DNA of 64,000 nt from assembly GCF_030013595.1 (NCBI RefSeq), contig NZ_CP122768.1. One strand, written 5' to 3'. The stretch is from Escherichia coli. GTDB lineage: Bacteria > Pseudomonadota > Gammaproteobacteria > Enterobacterales > Enterobacteriaceae. A model generated the notes under the pieces. That model had not been told where the DNA came from and did not search any database. It was given only the letters and a program-made list of their open reading frames with translations. Both the position numbers and the translations under genes were made by a program. This document shows, in pieces, positions 8,384 to 21,041 of the stretch. The number at the start of each line of letters is the position of its first letter. Position 1 is the stretch's first letter.

Positions 8384-9061
8384 TTAGTGACGAGCGCGCA
8401 CCAGCTGATACTTACGTGTCAGATACTCCACCGGTACGCTCCAGATGTGCACCAGACGTGAGAACGGGAACAGCAAGAATAACGTCATCCCCAGCACCAG
8501 GTGCAGACGGAAGATAAACGCCACACCATCAAGGTGTTGAGAAGCGCCACCGTGGAAGGTCACTACCGACTGCGCCCAGCCAACCAGTTTCATCATCTCG
8601 CTACCGTCCATATGCTGGGCGGAGAACGGAATGGTCAGCAAGCCCAGAGCGCACTGGATAACCAGCAGAGACAGGATCAGGATATCCGCTCCGGTAGTCG
8701 TTGCACGCACGCGTGGGCTGAACAGACGACGTTTCAGCAACAGCACGCCGCCAATCAGACACAGCACGCCGCTGGCACCACCAGCAAACATCGCCATTTT
8801 CTGTTTCACTTCAATCGGCAGCCAGGCTTCATACATCCAGTGCGGCGTCAGCATACCGAAGAAGTGACCAACAAAAATCCCCAGAATACCGATATGGAAC
8901 AGGTTCGACGCCAGGTTCATCCCTTTGCGATCCAGCATCTGGCTGGACGCCGCGCGCCAGGTGTACTGCCCGTAGTCATAACGCAGCCAGCTACCAATCA
9001 GGAAGACCGCCCCGGCTATGTACGGGTAGATATCAAAGAAGAACATATTCAGGAATTGCAT
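8384..9061 (-). CDS. narI: Respiratory nitrate reductase gamma subunit (cytochrome b)
   Basis: 225 aa polytopic membrane ORF, last gene of narGHJI. Confidence 0.96.
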
Positions 9062-9771
9062 TAGTGCTGTCCTCCGGTGGTGATATTCAGATATTGCGGC
9101 GCGACGGCACCAGCAAAGCGACGCTGATGAGCAGTGATTGCTGAATCACCGCAGCCTTTGTCAGCAAAGAATTTAACCTGCTCTTCTTCCCAGACAGCAT
9201 CCAGCGCCTGCGGCGTATCGTCGCGCGCTTCGTCGGCAATTTTTTCCGCCACTTTGTCGCTGTCGATTGCGGTATTCGCCAGTTTCAGCAGCAGATCAAA
9301 CAGCACGGCATAACGGCTTTCACGCTGTTGCAGACGCGCACTCAGCAATGCCAGAATCGGCGCAATATCTATCAAACCCTCCACGGCTTCGCTTTGCGGC
9401 AGCTGCGCCAGGTACTCCAGATACAGCGGCAGATGGTCGGGCAATTCGCGGCTGTTTAACTGCAAACCGTGCTGCTCATACTGCGCCAGCAGGTCTACCA
9501 TCGCCTGACCGCGGTCGCGGGATTCCCCGTGAACGTGTTCAAACAGCAACAGCGACGTGGCGCGACCACGATCGAACAGTTCGCTGTACTGCGCCTGGGC
9601 ATCGAGCGGATCCATCGTCGTTAAATCGCGCAGGAAAATGCCCAGCGCATGGGCATCTTCTTTCGACAGATTTTTCGACGCAGCAATTGCCTCAAACATC
9701 TCTTGTTGATGCTGCCATAAGGCAGCATCCGGATATTCAAGGAGACGCGATACAATCACGAGTTCGATCAT
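9061..9771 (-). CDS. narJ: Nitrate reductase delta subunit / molybdenum cofactor assembly chaperone
   Basis: 236 aa ORF; start overlaps narH stop and stop overlaps narI start. Confidence 0.96.
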
Positions 9772-11306
9772 GGGTGCGGCTCCGTTTTGCTGGTTACGTC
9801 GATGGCATCGATACGGCGGCTGTTGAACAGATTGAATTTGGTATCTGAACCGTGGCAGCCATCACCAAAGGTAAAGCCGCAGCCATTTTTCTCCGGGAAG
9901 GCTTCCCGCGCCAGTTCACGATGACTGCTCGGCACCACAAAGCGATCTTCGTAGTTAGCAATCGCCAGATAACGGTACATCTCCTGTGCCTGGGCTTCGG
10001 TCAGACCGACCTCTTCCAGCGCACGGGTATCGCCTTTACCGTCAACGGTTTCAGCACGTTTGTAATGACGCATCGCCAGCATACGTTTCAGCGCGCGCAG
10101 TACTGGTTTGGTATCACCGGCGGTCAGCAGATTCGCCAGATACTGTACCGGAATACGCAGACTTTCGACGTCTGGCAGAATGCCGTTGCTGCCCAGTTCA
10201 CCCGCATCTGCCGCAGACTGAATCGGCGACAGAGGCGGCACGTACCAGACCATCGGCAGTGTGCGATATTCCGGATGCAGCGGCAGCGCCAGTTTCCATT
10301 CCATCGCCATTTTATAAACCGGCGACTGCTGTGCGGCTTCAATAACGCTCAGCGGAATACCGTCTTTAATTGCCTGCTCGATGACTTTCGGATCGTTCGG
10401 ATCGAGGAACACCTCCAGCTGACGCTGGTAGAGATCTTTCTCGTTCTCGGTGCTGGCTGCACGTTCAATGGCGTCCGCATCGTACAGCAGCACGCCGAGA
10501 TAACGGATACGACCGACACAGGTTTCAGAGCACACCGTCGGCTGACCCGCTTCAATACGCGGATAGCAGAAGATGCACTTCTCAGACTTACCGCTCTTCC
10601 AGTTGAAGTAGATTTTTTTGTACGGGCATCCGGTGATGCACATACGCCAGCCACGGCATTTATCCTGGTCGATCAGGACGATGCCATCTTCTTCACGCTT
10701 GTAAATCGCACCGCTCGGGCAGGTCGCCACACATGCCGGGTTCAGGCAGTGTTCGCACAGGCGCGGCAAATACATCATGAAGGTGTTTTCGAACTGGCTA
10801 TACATCGCCTTCTGGATGTTGTCGAAGTTCTTGTCTTTCGCCAGCTTGTCAAACTCACCGCCCAGGTCATCTTCCCAGTTCGGCCCTTTTTCGATTTTCG
10901 CCATACGTTCGCCGGTAATCAGCGAACGCGGACGGGCAATCGGCTGCGATTTGCTGCCTTCCGGCGCGGTATGCAGGTTCTGATAATCAAAATCGAACGG
11001 CTCGTAATAATCGTCGATACCCGGCAGATGCGGGTTAGCAAAGATTTTACCCAGCAGCATGGCGCGGTTACCCATGCGCGGCTGCAGTTTGCCGTTGATT
11101 TTACGGATCCAGCCGCCTTTGTATTTTTCCTGGTTTTCCCAGTCAGTCGGGAAGCCCTGGCCCGGCTTGGTTTCCACGTTGTTGAACCACGCGTATTCCA
11201 CGCCTTCGCGGCTGGTCCAGACGTTTTTACAGGTAACTGAACAGGTGTGGCAGCCGATGCACTTATCGAGATTCAGCACCATGCCGACTTGTGAACGAAT
11301 TTTCAT
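9768..11306 (-). CDS. narH: Respiratory nitrate reductase beta subunit (Fe-S)
   Basis: 512 aa ORF with multiple ferredoxin-type Cys clusters (CIGCHTCSVTC, CEHCLNPACVATCP, CRGWRMCITGCPYKK). Confidence 0.97.
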   Translation of the reverse strand: MKIRSQVGMVLNLDKCIGCHTCSVTCKNVWTSREGVEYAWFNNVETKPGQGFPTDWENQEKYKGGWIRKINGKLQPRMGNRAMLLGKIFANPHLPGIDDYYEPFDFDYQNLHTAPEGSKSQPIARPRSLITGERMAKIEKGPNWEDDLGGEFDKLAKDKNFDNIQKAMYSQFENTFMMYLPRLCEHCLNPACVATCPSGAIYKREEDGIVLIDQDKCRGWRMCITGCPYKKIYFNWKSGKSEKCIFCYPRIEAGQPTVCSETCVGRIRYLGVLLYDADAIERAASTENEKDLYQRQLEVFLDPNDPKVIEQAIKDGIPLSVIEAAQQSPVYKMAMEWKLALPLHPEYRTLPMVWYVPPLSPIQSAADAGELGSNGILPDVESLRIPVQYLANLLTAGDTKPVLRALKRMLAMRHYKRAETVDGKGDTRALEEVGLTEAQAQEMYRYLAIANYEDRFVVPSSHRELAREAFPEKNGCGFTFGDGCHGSDTKFNLFNSRRIDAIDVTSKTEPHP

Positions 11307-14300
11307 TTTACGCTCTCCTGTACCTGGTCATTGCCTTCGCCATCTAACCAGTCAATGTTCTTCATCTTACGCACTACAACAAACTCATCGCGGTTAGAAC
11401 CTACGGTGCCGTAGTAGTTAAAGCCGTATGCCAGATGGGCATAGCCGCCGATCATATGCGTCGGTTTCGGCGTGATACGGGTGACCGAGTTATGGATACC
11501 ACCACGCTGTTGGGTAATTTCCGAACCAGGCAGGTTAACGATACGTTCCTGCGCGTGGTACATCATGGTCATCCCTGCCGGAACACGCTGGCTGACAACC
11601 GCACGGGCAGTCAGAGCACCGTTGCGGTTGAAGACTTCAATCCAGTCGTTATCGGCGATACCCAGCTCTTTGGCATCGGCTTCACTCAGCCAGACCACCG
11701 GACCACCGCGACCTAAAGTCAGCATCAGCAGGTTGTCGCTGTAGGTGGAGTGGATACCCCACTTCTGGTGCGGCGTCAGGAAGTTGAGCGCTTTTTCCGG
11801 GTTGCCGTTGGATTTCTGGCCTATCACTTCTTTCACCGAACGGGTGTCGATCGGCGGACGGTAAACCAGCAAGCTTTCACCGAAATCACGCATCCATTGG
11901 TGATCCTGATACAGCTGCTGACGGCCAGAGAGCGTACGCCACGGGATCAGCTCGTGAACGTTGGTGTAACCGGCGTTGTAAGAAACGTGTTCATCTTCAA
12001 GGCCAGACCAGGTCGGGCTGGAGATGATTTTGCGCGGCTGTGCCTGAATATCGCGGAAGCGAATCTTCTCGTCTTCTTTATTCAGCGCCAGATGCGTATG
12101 GTCACGACCGGTAAACTCGCTCAGGGCAGCCCAGGCTTTCACGGCTACCTGACCGTTGGTTTCCGGTGCCAGCGTCAGGATCATCTCTGCCGCATCAATT
12201 GCGGTATTGAGCATCGGCTGACCTTTTGCCGGACCTTCCGCTTTGGTGTAGTTGAGCTTACGCAGCAGATCCATCTCGCTCTGGGTGTTCCAGGCAATCC
12301 CTTTACCGCCGTTACCGATTTTCTCCATCAGCGGGCCGATAGAGGTAAAGCGTTCGTAAGTTGCCGGATAATCGCGCTCTACGACCATAATGTGCGGTGC
12401 AGTTTTACCTGGGATCAGGTCGCATTCGCCTTTTTTCCAGTCTTTCACATCCAGCGGCTGCGCCAGTTCAGCGGCAGAGTCGTGCTGGATAGGCAGCGTG
12501 ACGATGTCAGTTTCTTTACCCAGATGACCAACGCACACTTCGGAGAATTTCTTCGCGATGGCTTTGTAGATTTCCCAGTCGCTTTTCGCTTCCCAGGCCG
12601 GATCGACCGCCGCAGACAGCGGGTGAATAAACGGATGCATATCCGAAGTATTCATGTCGTCTTTTTCGTACCAGGTCGCCGTCGGCAAAATGATGTCGGA
12701 ATAGAGACAGGTGCTCGACAGACGGAAGTCCAGCGTCACCACCAGATCCAGCTTGCCTTCCAGACCGTTGTCCTGCCAGTCCACTTCTTCCGGCTTCACG
12801 CCGCCCTGCTGACCCAGGTCTTTACCCTGGATACCGTGCTCCGTCCCCAGCAGGTACTTGAGCATAAACTCATGACCTTTACCGGAAGAACCGAGCAGGT
12901 TAGAGCGCCAGATGAACAGGTTACGCGGGTGGTTTTTACCGTTTTCTGGTTGTTCTGCCGCAAAACGGATAGAACCCTCTTTCAGGGATTTCACGGTGTA
13001 ATCCACCGGATTCATGCCCGCTTTTTCCGCTTCGCGAGCGATAGTCAGCGGGTTAGTGCCTAACTGCGGCGCAGACGGCAGCCAGCCCATACGTTCTGCA
13101 CGGACGTTAAAGTCGATCAGATGTCCGGTATAACGGGATTTATCCGCCATCGGTGACAGCAACTCTTCCGCCGTGACGGTTTCATAACGCCACTGGCTGG
13201 AGTGGTTATAGAAATAAGAAGTGCTGTTCATGTGACGCGCCGGACGCTGCCAGTCAAGGGCAAACGCCAGCGGCTGCCAGCCGGTTTGCGGACGCAGTTT
13301 TTCCTGACCTACATAGTGCGCCCAGCCGCCCCCGCTCTGACCGACACAGCCGCAGAAAATCAGCATGTTGATCAGACCACGATAGTTCATATCGAGGTGA
13401 TACCAGTGGTTCAGCCCCGCACCGACGATAATCATTGAACGACCGTGGGTTTTATCAGCGTTATCGGCAAATTCACGGGCGATGCGAATAATCTGGCTGC
13501 GAGAAACGCCGGTAATCTGCTCGGCCCAGGCAGGGGTGTAAGCTTTCACATCGTCATAGCTGGTTGCACAATTAACGTCGTTCAGGCCACGTTCCAGACC
13601 GTAGTTTGCCAGCGTCAGATCATAAACGGTGGTCACCAGGGCGGTGCTGCCATCAGCCAGTTGCAGGCGTTTCACCGGCAGTTTGTGCAGCAGCACGTTT
13701 TCCAGTTCCACTTTGTTGAAGTGTTCAGTACCGTCGCCACCAAAGTACGGGAAGCCAACCTCAGCGATCTCATCCTGGCTACCCAGCAGGCTTAGTTGCA
13801 GCTCGGTTTCTTCGCCAGTTTTGCCGTCGCGCTGTTCAAGATTCCATTTGCCCTTCTCGCCCCAGCGGAAGCCGATAGAACCGTTCGGCGCAACCATTTC
13901 GCCATTGGTATTAAAGGCGACAGTTTTCCATTCCGGATTGTTTTCCTGGCCCAGCGCATCCACCAGATCAGCAGCGCGCAGCATACGACCCGCAGCGTAG
14001 TAACCGTCGCGTTCTTCCAGCATCACCAGCATCGGCATGTCGGTGTAGCGACGCACATAGTCGGTGAAATACTGGCTTGGGTTGTCGAGGTGGAATTCAC
14101 GCAGCATTACGTGGCCCATCGCCAGCGCCATTGCCGCATCGGTGCCCTGTTTCGGTGCCAGCCACAGATCGCACAGTTTGGCGATTTCAGCGTAGTCTGG
14201 CGTGACGGCAACAGTTTTGGTGCCTTTGTAACGCACTTCAGTAAAGAAGTGAGCATCCGGGGTACGCGTCTGCGGCACGTTTGAACCCCAGGCGATGATG

Positions 14301-15046
14301 TAGCTGGAGTTGTACCAGTCAGCAGATTCCGGTACGTCAGTCTGCTCGCCCCAGGTTTGCGGAGACGCAGGAGGCAGGTCGCAGTACCAGTCGTAGAAGC
14401 TTAAGCAAGTACCGCCAAGCAGCGAGAGATAGCGCGCACCCGACGCGTAAGAAACCATCGACATTGCCGGAATTGGCGAGAAGCCAGCGACGCGGTCCGG
14501 GCCGTAGTTTTTGATGGTGTAAACGTTAGAGGCGGCGATCAGTTCGTTCACTTCCTGCCAGGAAGAACGAACAAAACCACCGCGTCCACGCGCCTGCTTA
14601 AAGCTTTTCGCTTTATCGGCGTCTTCAATGATAGAAGCCCATGCCTCAACCGGATCGCTATGCAGCGCCTTCGCTTCACGCCACATTTTCATCAGGCGTT
14701 TGCGCATCATTGGGTATTTCAGGCGGTTGGCGCTGTAAAGATACCAGGAGTAGCTGGCACCGCGCGGGCAGCCGCGAGGTTCATGGTTTGGCAGGTCCGG
14801 GCGAGTACGCGGATAGTCAGTCTGCTGGGTTTCCCAGGTCACCAGACCGTTTTTGACGTAGATTTTCCAGCTGCAGGAGCCGGTGCAGTTTACCCCGTGG
14901 GTAGAGCGGACGATTTTGTCATGCTGCCAACGCTGGCGATATCCATCCTCCCAGTCACGGTTGGTATTGAGAAGCTGGCCATGCCCATCGGCAAAGGTTT
15001 CACCCTTCTGTTTGAAGTAGCGAAACCGGTCCAGGAATTTACTCAT
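11303..15046 (-). CDS. narG: Respiratory nitrate reductase alpha subunit (molybdopterin)
   Basis: 1247 aa ORF; N-terminal Fe-S motif HGVNCTGSCSWKIYVKNG, molybdopterin oxidoreductase core; 4-nt overlap with narH. Confidence 0.97.
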   Translation of the reverse strand: MSKFLDRFRYFKQKGETFADGHGQLLNTNRDWEDGYRQRWQHDKIVRSTHGVNCTGSCSWKIYVKNGLVTWETQQTDYPRTRPDLPNHEPRGCPRGASYSWYLYSANRLKYPMMRKRLMKMWREAKALHSDPVEAWASIIEDADKAKSFKQARGRGGFVRSSWQEVNELIAASNVYTIKNYGPDRVAGFSPIPAMSMVSYASGARYLSLLGGTCLSFYDWYCDLPPASPQTWGEQTDVPESADWYNSSYIIAWGSNVPQTRTPDAHFFTEVRYKGTKTVAVTPDYAEIAKLCDLWLAPKQGTDAAMALAMGHVMLREFHLDNPSQYFTDYVRRYTDMPMLVMLEERDGYYAAGRMLRAADLVDALGQENNPEWKTVAFNTNGEMVAPNGSIGFRWGEKGKWNLEQRDGKTGEETELQLSLLGSQDEIAEVGFPYFGGDGTEHFNKVELENVLLHKLPVKRLQLADGSTALVTTVYDLTLANYGLERGLNDVNCATSYDDVKAYTPAWAEQITGVSRSQIIRIAREFADNADKTHGRSMIIVGAGLNHWYHLDMNYRGLINMLIFCGCVGQSGGGWAHYVGQEKLRPQTGWQPLAFALDWQRPARHMNSTSYFYNHSSQWRYETVTAEELLSPMADKSRYTGHLIDFNVRAERMGWLPSAPQLGTNPLTIAREAEKAGMNPVDYTVKSLKEGSIRFAAEQPENGKNHPRNLFIWRSNLLGSSGKGHEFMLKYLLGTEHGIQGKDLGQQGGVKPEEVDWQDNGLEGKLDLVVTLDFRLSSTCLYSDIILPTATWYEKDDMNTSDMHPFIHPLSAAVDPAWEAKSDWEIYKAIAKKFSEVCVGHLGKETDIVTLPIQHDSAAELAQPLDVKDWKKGECDLIPGKTAPHIMVVERDYPATYERFTSIGPLMEKIGNGGKGIAWNTQSEMDLLRKLNYTKAEGPAKGQPMLNTAIDAAEMILTLAPETNGQVAVKAWAALSEFTGRDHTHLALNKEDEKIRFRDIQAQPRKIISSPTWSGLEDEHVSYNAGYTNVHELIPWRTLSGRQQLYQDHQWMRDFGESLLVYRPPIDTRSVKEVIGQKSNGNPEKALNFLTPHQKWGIHSTYSDNLLMLTLGRGGPVVWLSEADAKELGIADNDWIEVFNRNGALTARAVVSQRVPAGMTMMYHAQERIVNLPGSEITQQRGGIHNSVTRITPKPTHMIGGYAHLAYGFNYYGTVGSNRDEFVVVRKMKNIDWLDGEGNDQVQESVK

Positions 15047-15137
15047 CGGTTTTCTCCTGTGGGAGCCTGTCGGCCCTCTGATAAATCGACATTGCTAATG
15101 TTTAAGGGCAAGGTAACGCTCTGAAACAGCGTGAGAA

Positions 15138-15151
15138 TTGATAACGATCAA
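15138..15151. promoter_or_regulatory. FNR binding site in narG promoter
   Basis: Perfect TTGATaacgATCAA palindrome about 92 bp upstream of narG ATG, consistent with a class II (-41.5) FNR site. Confidence 0.75.
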
Positions 15152-15188
15152 GAGTGATGGGGATGAAAAATAAAGTAAATTCCTAAGA

Positions 15189-15195
15189 TACCCCT
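15189..15195. promoter_or_regulatory. NarL heptamer (TACCCCT) upstream of narG
   Basis: Matches TACYYMT NarL consensus; further heptamer-like sequences (aggagta/taccca) near 15280-15310. Confidence 0.4.
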
Positions 15196-15440
15196 TTAGG
15201 ATAATTAACAGCCACCACATAACAGACTGTAAATTAAGACGTTTTATACCTGTAGTTATTTAAACTATTAAGATTTTTATGCAGATGGGTATTAAGGAGT
15301 ATTCCCCATGGGTAACATATTAATGGCTCTTAATGAAATCCGGCGAAATAAGCCACTCACACATAAGTATGTTGTAACTAAACGACAGATAAAAAAAAGC
15401 GCGACACCATGCCGCGCAAAGGATAATCAAATATTAAGAT

Positions 15441-16832
15441 TTATTTTTTAGAATGCCGACCATATACCGCCCAGGTAATCACTACGCAGGCGATATAGAA
15501 AATCAAAAATACTTTCATTGCGCCGACTGGCGAACCCGTTAATGCCAGCGAGCTACCGAACGCTTTCGGGATAAAGAAGCCACCAATCGCGCCAATCGCA
15601 GAGATGAAACCCAGCGCCGCCGCCGTGTCGGTTGCCGCTTCACGCATCGCACGTTCGTCAGAACCCCCTTCTGCTTTCACGCGATCCATTGTCAGTTTAC
15701 GGAAGATCACGGAAATCATCTGGAAAGTGGAACCACTACCCAGCCCAGCTGTCAGGAACAGCGCCAGGAAGACTGCGAAGAACGCCATGAAGCTTCCGCC
15801 CTGCCCGTCAGTCGGTAAGGTCAGGAACAGCAGGCCGCTGAAAATCGCCATCAGAATAAAGTTCACCAGCGTGACACGAGTTCCGCCCAGACGGTCAGAT
15901 AATGCACCACCTGCAGAACGCGCCAGCGCACCAATAAACGGCCCGAAGAAAGCGTATTGCAGAATCTGAACATCCGGGAACTGCGTTTTTGACAGCATCG
16001 CAAAGCCCGCGGAGAAGCCGATGAAGGAGCCGAAGGTTGCCAGATACAGCAGGCTCATAATCCACAGATGACCCCGTTTGAGTACCGGCAACTGCTCCTT
16101 GATGGAGGCTTTCGAGGTAGCAAGATCGTTCATGCCAAACCACGCCGCAATGGTGAAGATGGCAAGGAACGGCACCCATACCCAGGACGCATTCGCCAGA
16201 TACAGCTCACTCCCATCCGGCTGTTTGACACCCTGGCTACCAAATACTGCGAAAATCGACAGTGATACCACCAGCGGAGCAACCAACTGCATGACGCTGA
16301 CGCCCATGTTGCCCAGACCACCATTCAGACCCAGCGCGCCACCCTGCTTCTGTTTCGGAAAGAAGAAGCTGATGTTTGCCATACTGGAAGCGAAGTTCGC
16401 GCCAGCAAAGCCGCACAGCAGAGAGATGATGATGAAGACGCTATAAGGCGTGGAGGTATCCTGCACGGCAAAACCCAGCCAGACGCAAGGAATAATCAGA
16501 ATACCGGTGCTGAACGCCGTCCAGCGACGACCACCGAAGATAGGAACCATAAAGGAGTATGGAACACGTAATAACGCGCCAGAAACCGAAGGCAGCGCAG
16601 TCAACATAAATAGCTGATCTGTCGTAAAATTAAAACCAACTTTTGGTAAGTTCACCGCAACAGCGCTGAACAACATCCATACGCAAAACGCCAGCAGCAG
16701 ACAGGGAACGGAAATCCACAGGTTGCGGCTGGCAATACGTTGACCGCGTTGTTGCCAGAACGCAGGATCTTCCGGTCGCCAATCTGTAATGACAGCTCCA
16801 GTAGCCCTTTCGGGGGCGGATGAGTGACTCAT
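15441..16832 (-). CDS. narK: Nitrate/nitrite transporter (MFS)
   Basis: Polytopic MFS ORF; start chosen at second Met (MSHSSAPERATG) giving 463 aa; ORF track begins two codons earlier at 16838. Confidence 0.92.
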   Translation of the reverse strand: MSHSSAPERATGAVITDWRPEDPAFWQQRGQRIASRNLWISVPCLLLAFCVWMLFSAVAVNLPKVGFNFTTDQLFMLTALPSVSGALLRVPYSFMVPIFGGRRWTAFSTGILIIPCVWLGFAVQDTSTPYSVFIIISLLCGFAGANFASSMANISFFFPKQKQGGALGLNGGLGNMGVSVMQLVAPLVVSLSIFAVFGSQGVKQPDGSELYLANASWVWVPFLAIFTIAAWFGMNDLATSKASIKEQLPVLKRGHLWIMSLLYLATFGSFIGFSAGFAMLSKTQFPDVQILQYAFFGPFIGALARSAGGALSDRLGGTRVTLVNFILMAIFSGLLFLTLPTDGQGGSFMAFFAVFLALFLTAGLGSGSTFQMISVIFRKLTMDRVKAEGGSDERAMREAATDTAAALGFISAIGAIGGFFIPKAFGSSLALTGSPVGAMKVFLIFYIACVVITWAVYGRHSKK

Positions 16833-16891
16833 AGACACCTCTGATACTCGTTTCGATGTCTGCCACCTTAGTGTCTGTAGCTAAAGGCAAT

Positions 16892-16905
16892 TTGATGTAA
16901 ATCAA
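16892..16905. promoter_or_regulatory. Promoter-proximal FNR site of narK
   Basis: TTGATgtaaATCAA perfect FNR palindrome about 60 bp upstream of narK start. Confidence 0.65.
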
Positions 16906-16929
16906 ACGATAAGATAACTTTATCTATCA

Positions 16930-16943
16930 TTGATATTTATCAT
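16930..16943. promoter_or_regulatory. Second (upstream) FNR-like site of narK
   Basis: TTGATatttATCAT, one mismatch to consensus, centre 38 bp from the proximal site (two helical turns apart, as expected for -41.5/-79.5). Confidence 0.5.
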
Positions 16944-17170
16944 TACCCATAGTGAGTACAGTGATTTCATAAAAATTATGAGATTTTTCACGGTGCTGTA
17001 GAATCCCTACCCTTACCGATGTAAAGCGACTAACCACACGGCAAATAAGGAGTAACTCTTTCAGGGTATGGGTATACTTCAGCCAATAGCCGAGAATACT
17101 GCCATTCCAGAATGTATCGTCACATTCATTAAGGTTATTGCTCATTTAAAGCCTGAAGGAAGAGGTTTAC

Positions 17171-18967
17171 ATGCTTAAACGTTGTCTCTCTCCGCTCACC
17201 CTGGTTAATCAGGTTGCGCTTATTGTGTTGCTTTCTACTGCTATTGGACTGGCAGGGATGGCAGTTTCTGGCTGGCTGGTGCAAGGCGTTCAGGGCAGCG
17301 CCCATGCGATCAACAAAGCGGGATCGCTGCGCATGCAAAGTTACCGTCTGTTGGCAGCAGTGCCATTAAGCGAGAAAGACAAGCCCTTAATTAAAGAAAT
17401 GGAACAAACGGCATTTAGCGCCGAGTTAACCCGAGCAGCAGAACGAGACGGACAACTGGCGCAATTACAGGGTTTACAAGATTACTGGCGTAATGAACTG
17501 ATCCCTGCGCTGATGCGTGCACAAAACCGCGAAACGGTGTCAGCGGATGTCAGCCAGTTTGTTGCCGGGCTTGATCAGCTGGTATCTGGTTTTGACCGCA
17601 CCACGGAAATGCGCATTGAGACAGTGGTGCTGGTCCATCGGGTAATGGCGGTATTTATGGCACTTTTACTGGTGTTCACTATTATCTGGTTGCGGGCGCG
17701 ACTGCTACAACCGTGGCGGCAATTGCTGGCAATGGCGAGTGCCGTCAGTCATCGCGATTTTACCCAACGCGCGAACATCAGCGGGCGCAACGAAATGGCG
17801 ATGCTTGGAACTGCGTTGAACAATATGTCTGCAGAACTGGCCGAAAGTTATGCCGTACTTGAGCAGCGGGTTCAGGAGAAAACCGCCGGGCTGGAGCATA
17901 AAAATCAGATCCTCTCTTTTTTATGGCAGGCCAACCGCCGATTGCATTCCCGCGCCCCGCTGTGTGAACGCCTGTCACCTGTACTCAACGGCTTACAGAA
18001 TTTGACCCTGCTACGTGATATTGAACTGCGGGTGTATGACACTGATGATGAAGAGAATCATCAGGAGTTTACCTGCCAGCCAGATATGACTTGTGATGAT
18101 AAAGGCTGCCAGCTCTGCCCGCGCGGCGTATTACCCGTTGGCGATCGCGGCACAACCCTGAAGTGGCGGCTGGCTGACTCTCATACGCAGTACGGTATTT
18201 TGCTGGCGACCCTGCCGCAGGGGCGTCATCTTAGCCATGATCAACAACAACTGGTGGATACCCTGGTTGAACAACTCACCGCCACGCTGGCGTTGGATCG
18301 CCATCAGGAACGTCAGCAACAGTTGATCGTGATGGAAGAGCGTGCCACCATTGCGCGCGAACTGCATGATTCTATTGCCCAATCTCTCTCTTGCATGAAG
18401 ATGCAGGTGAGTTGTTTACAGATGCAGGGCGATGCGCTGCCAGAAAGCAGCCGCGATCTGTTGAGTCAGATCCGTAACGAACTGAATGCATCCTGGGCGC
18501 AGTTGCGTGAATTGCTCACCACATTCCGTTTGCAGCTCACCGAGCCTGGATTACGTCCGGCGCTGGAGGCGAGTTGCGAAGAGTACAGCGCCAAATTTGG
18601 CTTCCCGGTGAAGCTGGATTATCAATTGCCGCCTCGTCTGGTGCCTTCGCATCAGGCAATCCACTTGTTGCAAATTGCCCGTGAGGCATTAAGTAACGCC
18701 CTCAAACATTCGCAAGCGAGTGAGGTCGTGGTGACGGTGGCGCAAAACGATAATCAGGTCAAACTGACCGTCCTGGATAACGGCTGCGGCGTGCCTGAAA
18801 ATGCCATCCGCAGCAATCACTACGGCATGATAATAATGCGCGACCGTGCGCAAAGTTTACGAGGCGATTGCCGCGTCCGCCGTCGTGAATCAGGTGGCAC
18901 CGAAGTGGTTGTCACCTTTATTCCCGAAAAAACTTTCACAGACGTCCAAGGAGATACCCATGAGTAA
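17171..18967 (+). CDS. narX: Nitrate/nitrite sensor histidine kinase
   Basis: 598 aa; two TM segments flanking periplasmic P-box, HAMP, H-box ([18 protein letters not shown]) and HATPase domain. Confidence 0.97.
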
Positions 18968-19610
18968 TCAGGAACCGGCTACTATCCTGCTGATCGACGA
19001 TCACCCGATGCTGCGAACTGGCGTAAAACAGCTTATCAGTATGGCACCAGATATCACCGTGGTTGGCGAAGCGAGTAATGGCGAACAGGGTATTGAACTG
19101 GCGGAATCTCTTGATCCCGATCTGATCCTGTTAGATCTCAATATGCCCGGCATGAATGGTCTGGAAACGCTGGATAAACTGCGCGAAAAGTCCCTCTCCG
19201 GGCGCATTGTGGTATTCAGCGTTTCTAACCATGAAGAAGATGTGGTCACCGCACTGAAACGCGGCGCGGATGGCTATCTGTTAAAAGATATGGAACCGGA
19301 AGATCTGCTGAAAGCATTGCATCAGGCTGCTGCTGGCGAAATGGTATTAAGCGAAGCATTAACGCCTGTTCTGGCCGCCAGCTTGCGCGCTAACCGTGCC
19401 ACTACTGAGCGCGATGTTAACCAGTTAACCCCACGCGAGCGCGATATTCTCAAGCTGATTGCCCAGGGTTTGCCGAACAAGATGATTGCCCGCCGCCTGG
19501 ATATCACCGAAAGCACAGTAAAAGTGCACGTCAAGCACATGCTGAAGAAAATGAAGCTCAAGTCTCGCGTGGAAGCAGCAGTATGGGTGCATCAGGAGCG
19601 CATTTTCTGA
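18960..19610 (+). CDS. narL: Nitrate/nitrite response regulator
   Basis: ATG at 18960 gives 216 aa ([21 protein letters not shown]...), receiver plus LuxR-type HTH; overlaps narX stop by 8 nt; ORF-track start 18846 is an upstream extension. Confidence 0.95.
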
Positions 19611-21041
19611 TTACAGTTCCCAGCGCAGTTCGTCGTTTGACAATGCGTCGAACGGTTCGACAAGCGTTAGCGTGATCTCATTGGAGGAGACACGCTGCCC
19701 CTGGTTATCTTCCACCACTACAGATAATCGCCAGTGATTGCTTGCCCCTTCCCCGTTTTGCCAGTCAGGCATGATCAGCGTCCAGCCCTCCGCGCTGTTG
19801 GCTTGTGCGCCCGACGTCAAACTTAATATCTGCGTATCGCCCTGCCAAATCAGTTGCCGAATACCATAACGACTGCGGATTTGTAATTTCAGCGGCACTG
19901 TTTCGCCTGGTTTAAGATCCCACGGCGGTGTCGCCAGAAACACCGTTAACGTTTTTCGCTGTCGGTACTCAAGAGTCGGTAGATTATTTCGCTGCGGATT
20001 ATCATAGCGACTACCACGTAACGACTGACTTTCGGCAACCTCGCCCGCAGAAAGTTGTTTTTTGAGCGGGACACCAAAGCGGTAGTTAAGATTCAGCCCG
20101 AGGTTATTTTGATTCTCACCACTTTCACCCTGTTTATGCTGGGCCGTCACAGTGACTAAGGGCACAGGGGTGTAATTTAATCCCAGACTCAATGCGACGG
20201 GATTGTGATAACCCGTACCAGAGTTAAACAAATCAACACGATCACCAAAATACTGTTCTACGCTGACACTGGTATTGAGGTGTTGATAAAACGGCATGCG
20301 CATCCGGGCTGTCAGGTCGTACCCGCGCGCCATCCGTTGTTCCTGCGTGGCTGTCTGTTCATGCCATGCAGCAAACGGCTGATAAAAGTTTGCCGATAGT
20401 CGCAAATATTCGCCCCACGCTTCGGCACCGAAGCCCGCTCGCTGAAGATTTTCGTCCAGCAAGTTGTCATAAAAAGTGTTATAACCCACCAGCCAGCTGC
20501 CGCGCGCCCAGCGTTGCCCAACGCCCACATTGCTCACCAGCCCATCATCCTGCTGAGTAAGACCAAGCTGGCTCCAGGTGAGATAACGATCATTATCTTG
20601 TAACGGCACAAACCAGCTTCCACGACTGCCGGTGAAATGTCCTTCGTTATCCACTTTGACGTCAACACTGGCATTTCCCCACGCTGATAGCCAGGACTCT
20701 ACGTGCTGATTAACCTGTTGACTAAGCGCATCGCGGACTTTTCCCAATGCGAAAGCTTTTGCCTGCTCGCCAGTATCCAGCCCGTTATCATTCATACTGG
20801 TTTCGCCGAAATCTTTCACAATTTCAGCAAAGTGTTTTTCCCCATCATGATTTTCAGGTGCCATGCCTAAATCCGGCAGACCATCATTGTTATTATCAAA
20901 GGGATTTGCCGCTTTTTGCTCGAAGGTAGATTGTGCGTTAGCTGTACCGCCTGCCGCCAGCAAGAGTAAATAAAACGGAATAATGCGAGGAACGAAACGG
21001 CTCAAAACGTCGGTAACTTCCGGTAAAAAATGAAAAACCAT
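19611..21041 (-). CDS. ychO: Invasin/intimin-like outer-membrane protein YchO
   Basis: 476 aa ORF with signal-peptide-like hydrophobic stretch and beta-rich invasin-type sequence; precise start uncertain; stop abuts narL stop. Confidence 0.75.
   Translation of the reverse strand: MVFHFLPEVTDVLSRFVPRIIPFYLLLLAAGGTANAQSTFEQKAANPFDNNNDGLPDLGMAPENHDGEKHFAEIVKDFGETSMNDNGLDTGEQAKAFALGKVRDALSQQVNQHVESWLSAWGNASVDVKVDNEGHFTGSRGSWFVPLQDNDRYLTWSQLGLTQQDDGLVSNVGVGQRWARGSWLVGYNTFYDNLLDENLQRAGFGAEAWGEYLRLSANFYQPFAAWHEQTATQEQRMARGYDLTARMRMPFYQHLNTSVSVEQYFGDRVDLFNSGTGYHNPVALSLGLNYTPVPLVTVTAQHKQGESGENQNNLGLNLNYRFGVPLKKQLSAGEVAESQSLRGSRYDNPQRNNLPTLEYRQRKTLTVFLATPPWDLKPGETVPLKLQIRSRYGIRQLIWQGDTQILSLTSGAQANSAEGWTLIMPDWQNGEGASNHWRLSVVVEDNQGQRVSSNEITLTLVEPFDALSNDELRWEL

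Follow-up and report, generated by a model that had tools for sequence, protein, structure and literature searches.

Features of the narK-narG Intergenic Region

The window, that is, the whole 64,000-nt stretch of DNA that was analyzed, contains three open reading frames that are relevant here; all were taken from the ORF list and named by megablast against complete E. coli genomes. Read on the minus strand, positions 15047-15440 (394 bp) are exactly the intergenic region between narK and narG, an AT-rich segment with 38% GC vs. 51% across the window. The genes and the features located between them are as follows, with promoter positions numbered from the narG transcription start.

11303-15046, minus strand: narG, 1247 aa
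15047-15103, minus strand: 57-nt 5' untranslated leader of narG; +1 is the A at 15103, placed by published K-12 numbering
15054-15058, minus strand: Shine-Dalgarno sequence AGGAG in the narG leader
15110-15115, minus strand: -10 hexamer TACCTT (-12 to -7), a weak match to TATAAT, from sequence and cross-species register
15134 (-31), minus strand: difference from K-12 in the promoter (T here, C in K-12), from alignment
15138-15151, palindrome: FNR box TTGATAACGATCAA (in the narG sense TTGATCGTTATCAA), -48 to -35, centre -41.5, class II, 10/10 match to TTGAT-N4-ATCAA
15189-15195, plus strand: NarL heptamer TACCCCT, centre -89, inverted relative to narG, exact TACYYMT match
15198-15204, minus strand: degenerate partner heptamer TTATCCT, centre -98, two mismatches, in 7-2-7 geometry with the -89 heptamer
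15220-15232, minus strand: probable IHF core TTACAGTCTGTTA, centre -123, three mismatches to WATCAANNNNTTR, placed by cross-species register
15285-15291, minus strand: distal NarL heptamer TACCCAT, centre -185, pointing toward narG, exact TACYYMT match
15295-15301, minus strand: distal NarL heptamer TACTCCT, centre -195, pointing toward narG, exact TACYYMT match
15308-15314, minus strand: distal NarL heptamer TACCCAT, centre -208, pointing toward narG, exact TACYYMT match
15362-15384, plus strand: replication terminus site TerD CATAAGTATGTTGTAACTAAACG, G6 at 15367, 21 of 23 bases as in K-12 TerD
15391-15398, minus strand: U8 run after the narK terminator, from the terminator scan
15391-15452, minus strand: NarS-like 3'UTR-derived small RNA, short form of ∼62 nt, from terminator scan, fold and alignment (5' end inferred)
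15399-15417, minus strand: narK terminator hairpin, from terminator scan and fold
about 15420-15429, minus strand: NarS seed UUGAUUAUCC, from alignment
15441-16838, minus strand: narK, 465 aa
17171-18967, plus strand: narX, 598 aa

Alignment with K-12 MG1655 gave identity from the narG ATG (+57) up to about -250, a single base excepted. The sites of the narGHJI promoter have the same sequences, spacing and orientation in both strains; the T that replaces the K-12 C at -31 is common to 50-59% of 94 species in the register profile described below. After the narK stop codon K-12 carries an ERIC-like insertion of ∼123 bp, which is absent in the window strain and leaves the promoter unaffected.

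For a 12-kb segment of the window (9000-21000), identity is ∼99.96% with two E. coli isolates from pigs (HCP5S3_I2 and LCP30S3_I5) and does not exceed 98.9% with any other complete genome. Sequence comparison suggests that the window belongs to a sparsely sampled lineage of E. coli.

Transcription Start, FNR Box and Core Promoter

The narG +1 was fixed independently of the FNR box by mapping published primers onto the window sequence. The 'narG223' fragment (-223 to +70) had been amplified with primers narGup223 and narGDown (Hothersall et al., 2022); their genomic parts begin at window position 15326 and end at 15034, and both ends place +1 at 15103. With this start site the FNR box is centred at -41.5, the same as the literature value, which was tabulated for narGHJI on the basis of ChIP and footprinting. 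A perfect FNR palindrome at 15138-15151, at the class II distance from narG, had been proposed in the first-pass annotation, and both the 10/10 match and the distance were borne out. The narGHJI operon is listed as directly activated by FNR from a site at -41.5 (Myers et al., 2013), and after conversion of K-12 coordinates the K-12 FNR ChIP peak from that work falls within ∼15 bp of the box. Two perfect TTGAT-N4-ATCAA boxes were observed in the window vs. 0.08 expected.

We then compared narG upstream regions by phylogenetic footprinting. Sequences from 120 species were fetched by matching the first 13 codons of narG to a degenerate pattern; selection was by the narG coding pattern alone, and promoter sequence had no influence on the sample. 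A perfect FNR box was present upstream of narG in 101 of the 120 species, 99 times at 91-148 bp from the ATG and twice at 244 bp. Register counts were anchored on the FNR box in 97 species, and the per-position profile was derived from 94.

TACCTT is the commonest hexamer at the -10 register (44/97 species). The narG promoter has class II geometry, with a recognisable -10 ∼29 bp from the centre of the FNR site and a poor -35. There is no usable -35 at narG, and a sigma-70 consensus scan of 14900-15600 found no promoter. Such a null result is what an activator-dependent promoter would give; it is uninformative and does not confirm a promoter of that kind.

The narK Terminator and NarS

The small RNA NarS begins within the last narK codons and consists of ∼40 nt followed by a 3' part that doubles as the intrinsic terminator of narK. 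In the K-12 RefSeq record the ncRNA narS is annotated across the narK stop codon. In an alignment with Salmonella, Citrobacter, Enterobacter and Leclercia the seed TTGATTATCC and the stem were conserved, and the predicted fold of the window NarS (15452 to 15391) leaves the seed unpaired and ends in a hairpin. A permissive E-value search of Rfam over the region gave no match to a NarS family. The only hit over the region, a sub-threshold L20_leader match, was rejected (26.6 bits vs. a gathering score of 58.7); it was driven by the terminator hairpin and the A/U-rich flank.

Salmonella NarS-S is 63 nt long, and nt 21-33 form the seed; in Salmonella, NarS was shown to be processed by RNase E, to bind Hfq and to repress nirC (Wang et al., 2020; PMC7038943). 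The window form (∼62 nt) resembles NarS-S in location, seed, length and the terminator hairpin with its U-run. K-12 NarS is longer owing to an insertion near the narK stop (PMC7038943). The window has no such insertion and should therefore make the short form of NarS. In addition, one loop base differs between the window and the NarS of K-12 and strain 118UI.

The K-12 insertion resembles an ERIC/IRU element. Of 5426 complete E. coli genomes, 2570 carry an ERIC-like insertion at the narK stop, which makes the length of NarS polymorphic within the species.

TerD

During alignment a block TAGTTACAACATACT was noticed on the minus strand (15380 to 15366) with flanks that could not be aligned on either side. 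Over its 14-base core, TAGTTACAACATAC, 53 of the 120 enterobacterial species agree at every base with divergent flanks, and the base next to the core is T in all 53 except Salmonella enterica subsp. arizonae. A literature search with TAGTTACAACATACT led to papers using Ter oligonucleotides, and a published oligonucleotide has the same core. The K-12 TerD 23-mer was then found as an exact match in NC_000913.3 at 1279527-1279549, 7 nt past the annotated 3' end of narS. The window site departs from this 23-mer by substitutions at two flank positions, 4 and 22; the core, G6, the location in the narK-narG gap and the polarity relative to replication are all as in K-12. After this match, readings of the block as a promoter, a new transcription-factor site or an RNA element were dropped. 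The window has a single perfect match to the Ter core GTTGTAACTA with its G6, namely GTATGTTGTAACTA at 15367-15380.

The non-permissive face of TerD points to low coordinates, the narG side. The plus-strand GC skew of the window is -0.024; a negative skew indicates that the normal fork runs from high to low coordinates and thus comes from the narK side, meeting Ter position 23 first. This orientation agrees with the published arrest of counter-clockwise forks by TerD, and Tus ChIP has been reported at TerA-E and G (PMC8707476). Tus-bound TerD would let the normal fork pass and block a fork from the narG side, the lock forming when unwinding comes from the G6 side.

TerD is packed closely against its neighbors. 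Only 7 nt (15385-15391) lie between the last U of the terminator U-run and TerD. Of 56 species, 34 have the FNR box at 227-228 bp from TerD, and in 44 this distance deviates from the median by no more than 2 bp. The spacer between TerD and the FNR box is only 39% identical despite its constant length. That the narK/NarS terminator, TerD and the upstream activating region of narG are packed so tightly, and in so many species, may conceivably not be accidental: the terminator might shield Tus-TerD from narK transcription entering the permissive face, or Tus might bound the IHF-looped NarL complex. We regard such a role as unlikely.

The near-constant distance could also speak for a more specific arrangement in which TerD and narG are functionally coupled, with Tus at about -255 to -277 forming part or the boundary of the narG activation complex. 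However, fragments ending at -223 or -236 have been used as fully regulated narG promoters, and in these species the narG leader varies about as little in length, so that a low rate of indels may account for the spacing. Our searches found no literature linking Tus to narG, and we consider such coupling highly unlikely. TerD is best read as an element independent of the narG promoter.

NarL Heptamers and the IHF Site

Four NarL heptamers match TACYYMT exactly in the narG upstream region. The TACCCCT proposed by the first-pass annotation at 15189-15195 is present there on the plus strand, and what it had described as heptamer-like sequences near 15280-15310 turned out to be three exact heptamers on the minus strand, at -185, -195 and -208. 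The annotation was silent on narG being encoded on the minus strand; its positions are nonetheless consistent with that strand. A fifth exact match at 15363-15369 corresponds to Ter positions 2-8 and is a by-product of TerD, so that four real heptamers remain; positions 2-8 of K-12 TerD, unlike those of the window, do not match the heptamer. The five exact heptamers in 394 bp compare with 0.19 expected from shuffles of the window and 0.56 expected from shuffles of the AT-rich region (Poisson P of about 2e-6), and five were reached in one of 5000 shuffles of the region.

Published NarL-P footprints at narG comprise a -89 region of high affinity and a -195 region of lower affinity, and activation of narG needs both regions plus FNR and IHF (Katsir et al.). 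The comparison with published footprints that had been suggested for this locus thus came out in agreement, the heptamers at -89, -185, -195 and -208 coinciding with the -89 and -195 regions.

The register counts are consistent with this assignment. The -195 heptamer, pointing toward narG, is exact in 57 of 97 species and lies at -194 to -197 in 71 of 97. At -89, 49 of 97 species have an inverted heptamer that departs from the consensus by no more than one base (vs. a mean of 0.9 per position), and heptamers with at most one mismatch occur at -185 in 42 and at -98 in 40 of the 97; background means for heptamers in these counts were 0.5-1.9 per position. In many genera the -98 heptamer forms a 7-2-7-type site with the -89 half. 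The -208 heptamer was not conserved beyond close relatives in the 97-species count.

An IHF consensus scan of the window alone returned only 2-mismatch matches, none of them at the expected place. Across species the IHF core WATCAANNNNTTR with at most one mismatch peaks at -123/-124 (46/97 species vs. a mean of 0.37 per position), and a core with at most two mismatches lies within -126 to -120 in 85 of 97 species. The peak agrees with an IHF footprint near -125. Since the E. coli core is poor (three mismatches), the site was placed solely by its positional conservation and by this footprint, and we list it as probable.

In the per-position profile, four islands are conserved (-22 to -7, the FNR box, -92 to -86 and -198 to -183), and the remainder is near random. 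Judged by conservation, the FNR box, the -10, the -89 and -195 heptamers and the IHF core are under constraint across ∼100 species, and the -208 heptamer is not. Sites that keep a fixed register in so many species while their surroundings diverge are thereby supported as functional. The register analysis provides a compact view of constraint within the classic narG promoter.

The architecture of the upstream heptamers bears on which response regulator they serve. NarP needs an inverted 7-2-7 arrangement of heptamers, and the window has no high-affinity pair of this kind: the -89 heptamer has a partner with two mismatches, and the heptamers of the distal cluster are direct repeats. Centred at -93.5, the -89 and -98 heptamers of the window form what is left of a 7-2-7 inverted repeat. 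Many other genera have a 7-2-7-type inverted repeat at that same centre, and one could argue from them that the upstream heptamers act mainly via NarP, or via NarL and NarP, rather than via NarL alone. The degenerate upstream half (TTATCCT) and the direct repeats of the E. coli promoter speak against such a role, as does the published statement that E. coli narG is without 7-2-7 sites and is activated by NarL (Katsir et al.), and we consider NarP control very improbable. The missing pair is a known peculiarity of narG and is not required of a NarL-activated promoter. Decay of the upstream 7-2-7 half in Escherichia may relate to the control of E. coli narG by NarL only and not by NarP.

The least tenable explanation is that the FNR box and heptamers arose by chance in AT-rich intergenic DNA and play no regulatory role: the region is indeed poor in GC, TACYYMT is short and one heptamer is a TerD by-product, but the enrichment survives composition-matched shuffles, the sites hold their register across ∼100 species amid diverging sequence and the DNA matches the K-12 promoter in which the sites were footprinted and mutated, so that this explanation is effectively refuted.

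Interpretation of the Locus

We concluded, with a probability of roughly 95%, that 15047-15440 is narK-narG intergenic DNA of the E. coli chromosome with three independent, previously described elements: the narGHJI promoter, the narK terminator with NarS, and TerD. The reading of the segment as the narG control region is supported by the match to K-12 (apart from -31), by the published +1 and footprints, and by conservation across ∼100 species.

A working scheme for these elements can be put together from the literature; our own analysis covers K-12 sequence identity, site positions, enrichment and conservation, and protein occupancy, regulation and looping are inferred from published work. 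Under anoxia an FNR dimer on the perfect box at -41.5 would recruit RNA polymerase as a class II activator to a promoter with a weak -10 and no -35. In the presence of nitrate, NarX would phosphorylate NarL, and NarL-P would occupy the -89 heptamer and the -185/-195/-208 cluster. An IHF-induced bend near -123 could then bring the distal NarL-P complex to the promoter-proximal region. RNase E would cut NarS from narK mRNA, and NarS may in turn repress nirC.

The first-pass annotation had called the region ordinary regulatory architecture, of use as an internal control for the window. We agree: every element has been described before, the narG promoter, NarS and TerD are already known in every part, and the DNA is good E. 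coli sequence. The annotation placed the FNR and NarL sites correctly; it did not locate the IHF site, and it missed the narK terminator with most of NarS, as well as TerD, within its own coordinates. As quality control, the case indicates that a reader working without tools can place FNR and NarL sites correctly. It also shows how further functional elements, here a small RNA and a replication terminus site, can go unnoticed behind a plausible regulatory label given to a few hundred bases.

The second perfect FNR box of the window, TTGATGTAAATCAA at 16892-16905, lies upstream of narK in the divergent intergenic region between narK and narX. Exact NarL heptamers were found in the same intergenic region at 16944-16950, 17048-17054 and 17068-17074. 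This FNR box and the nearby heptamers presumably constitute the narK promoter.
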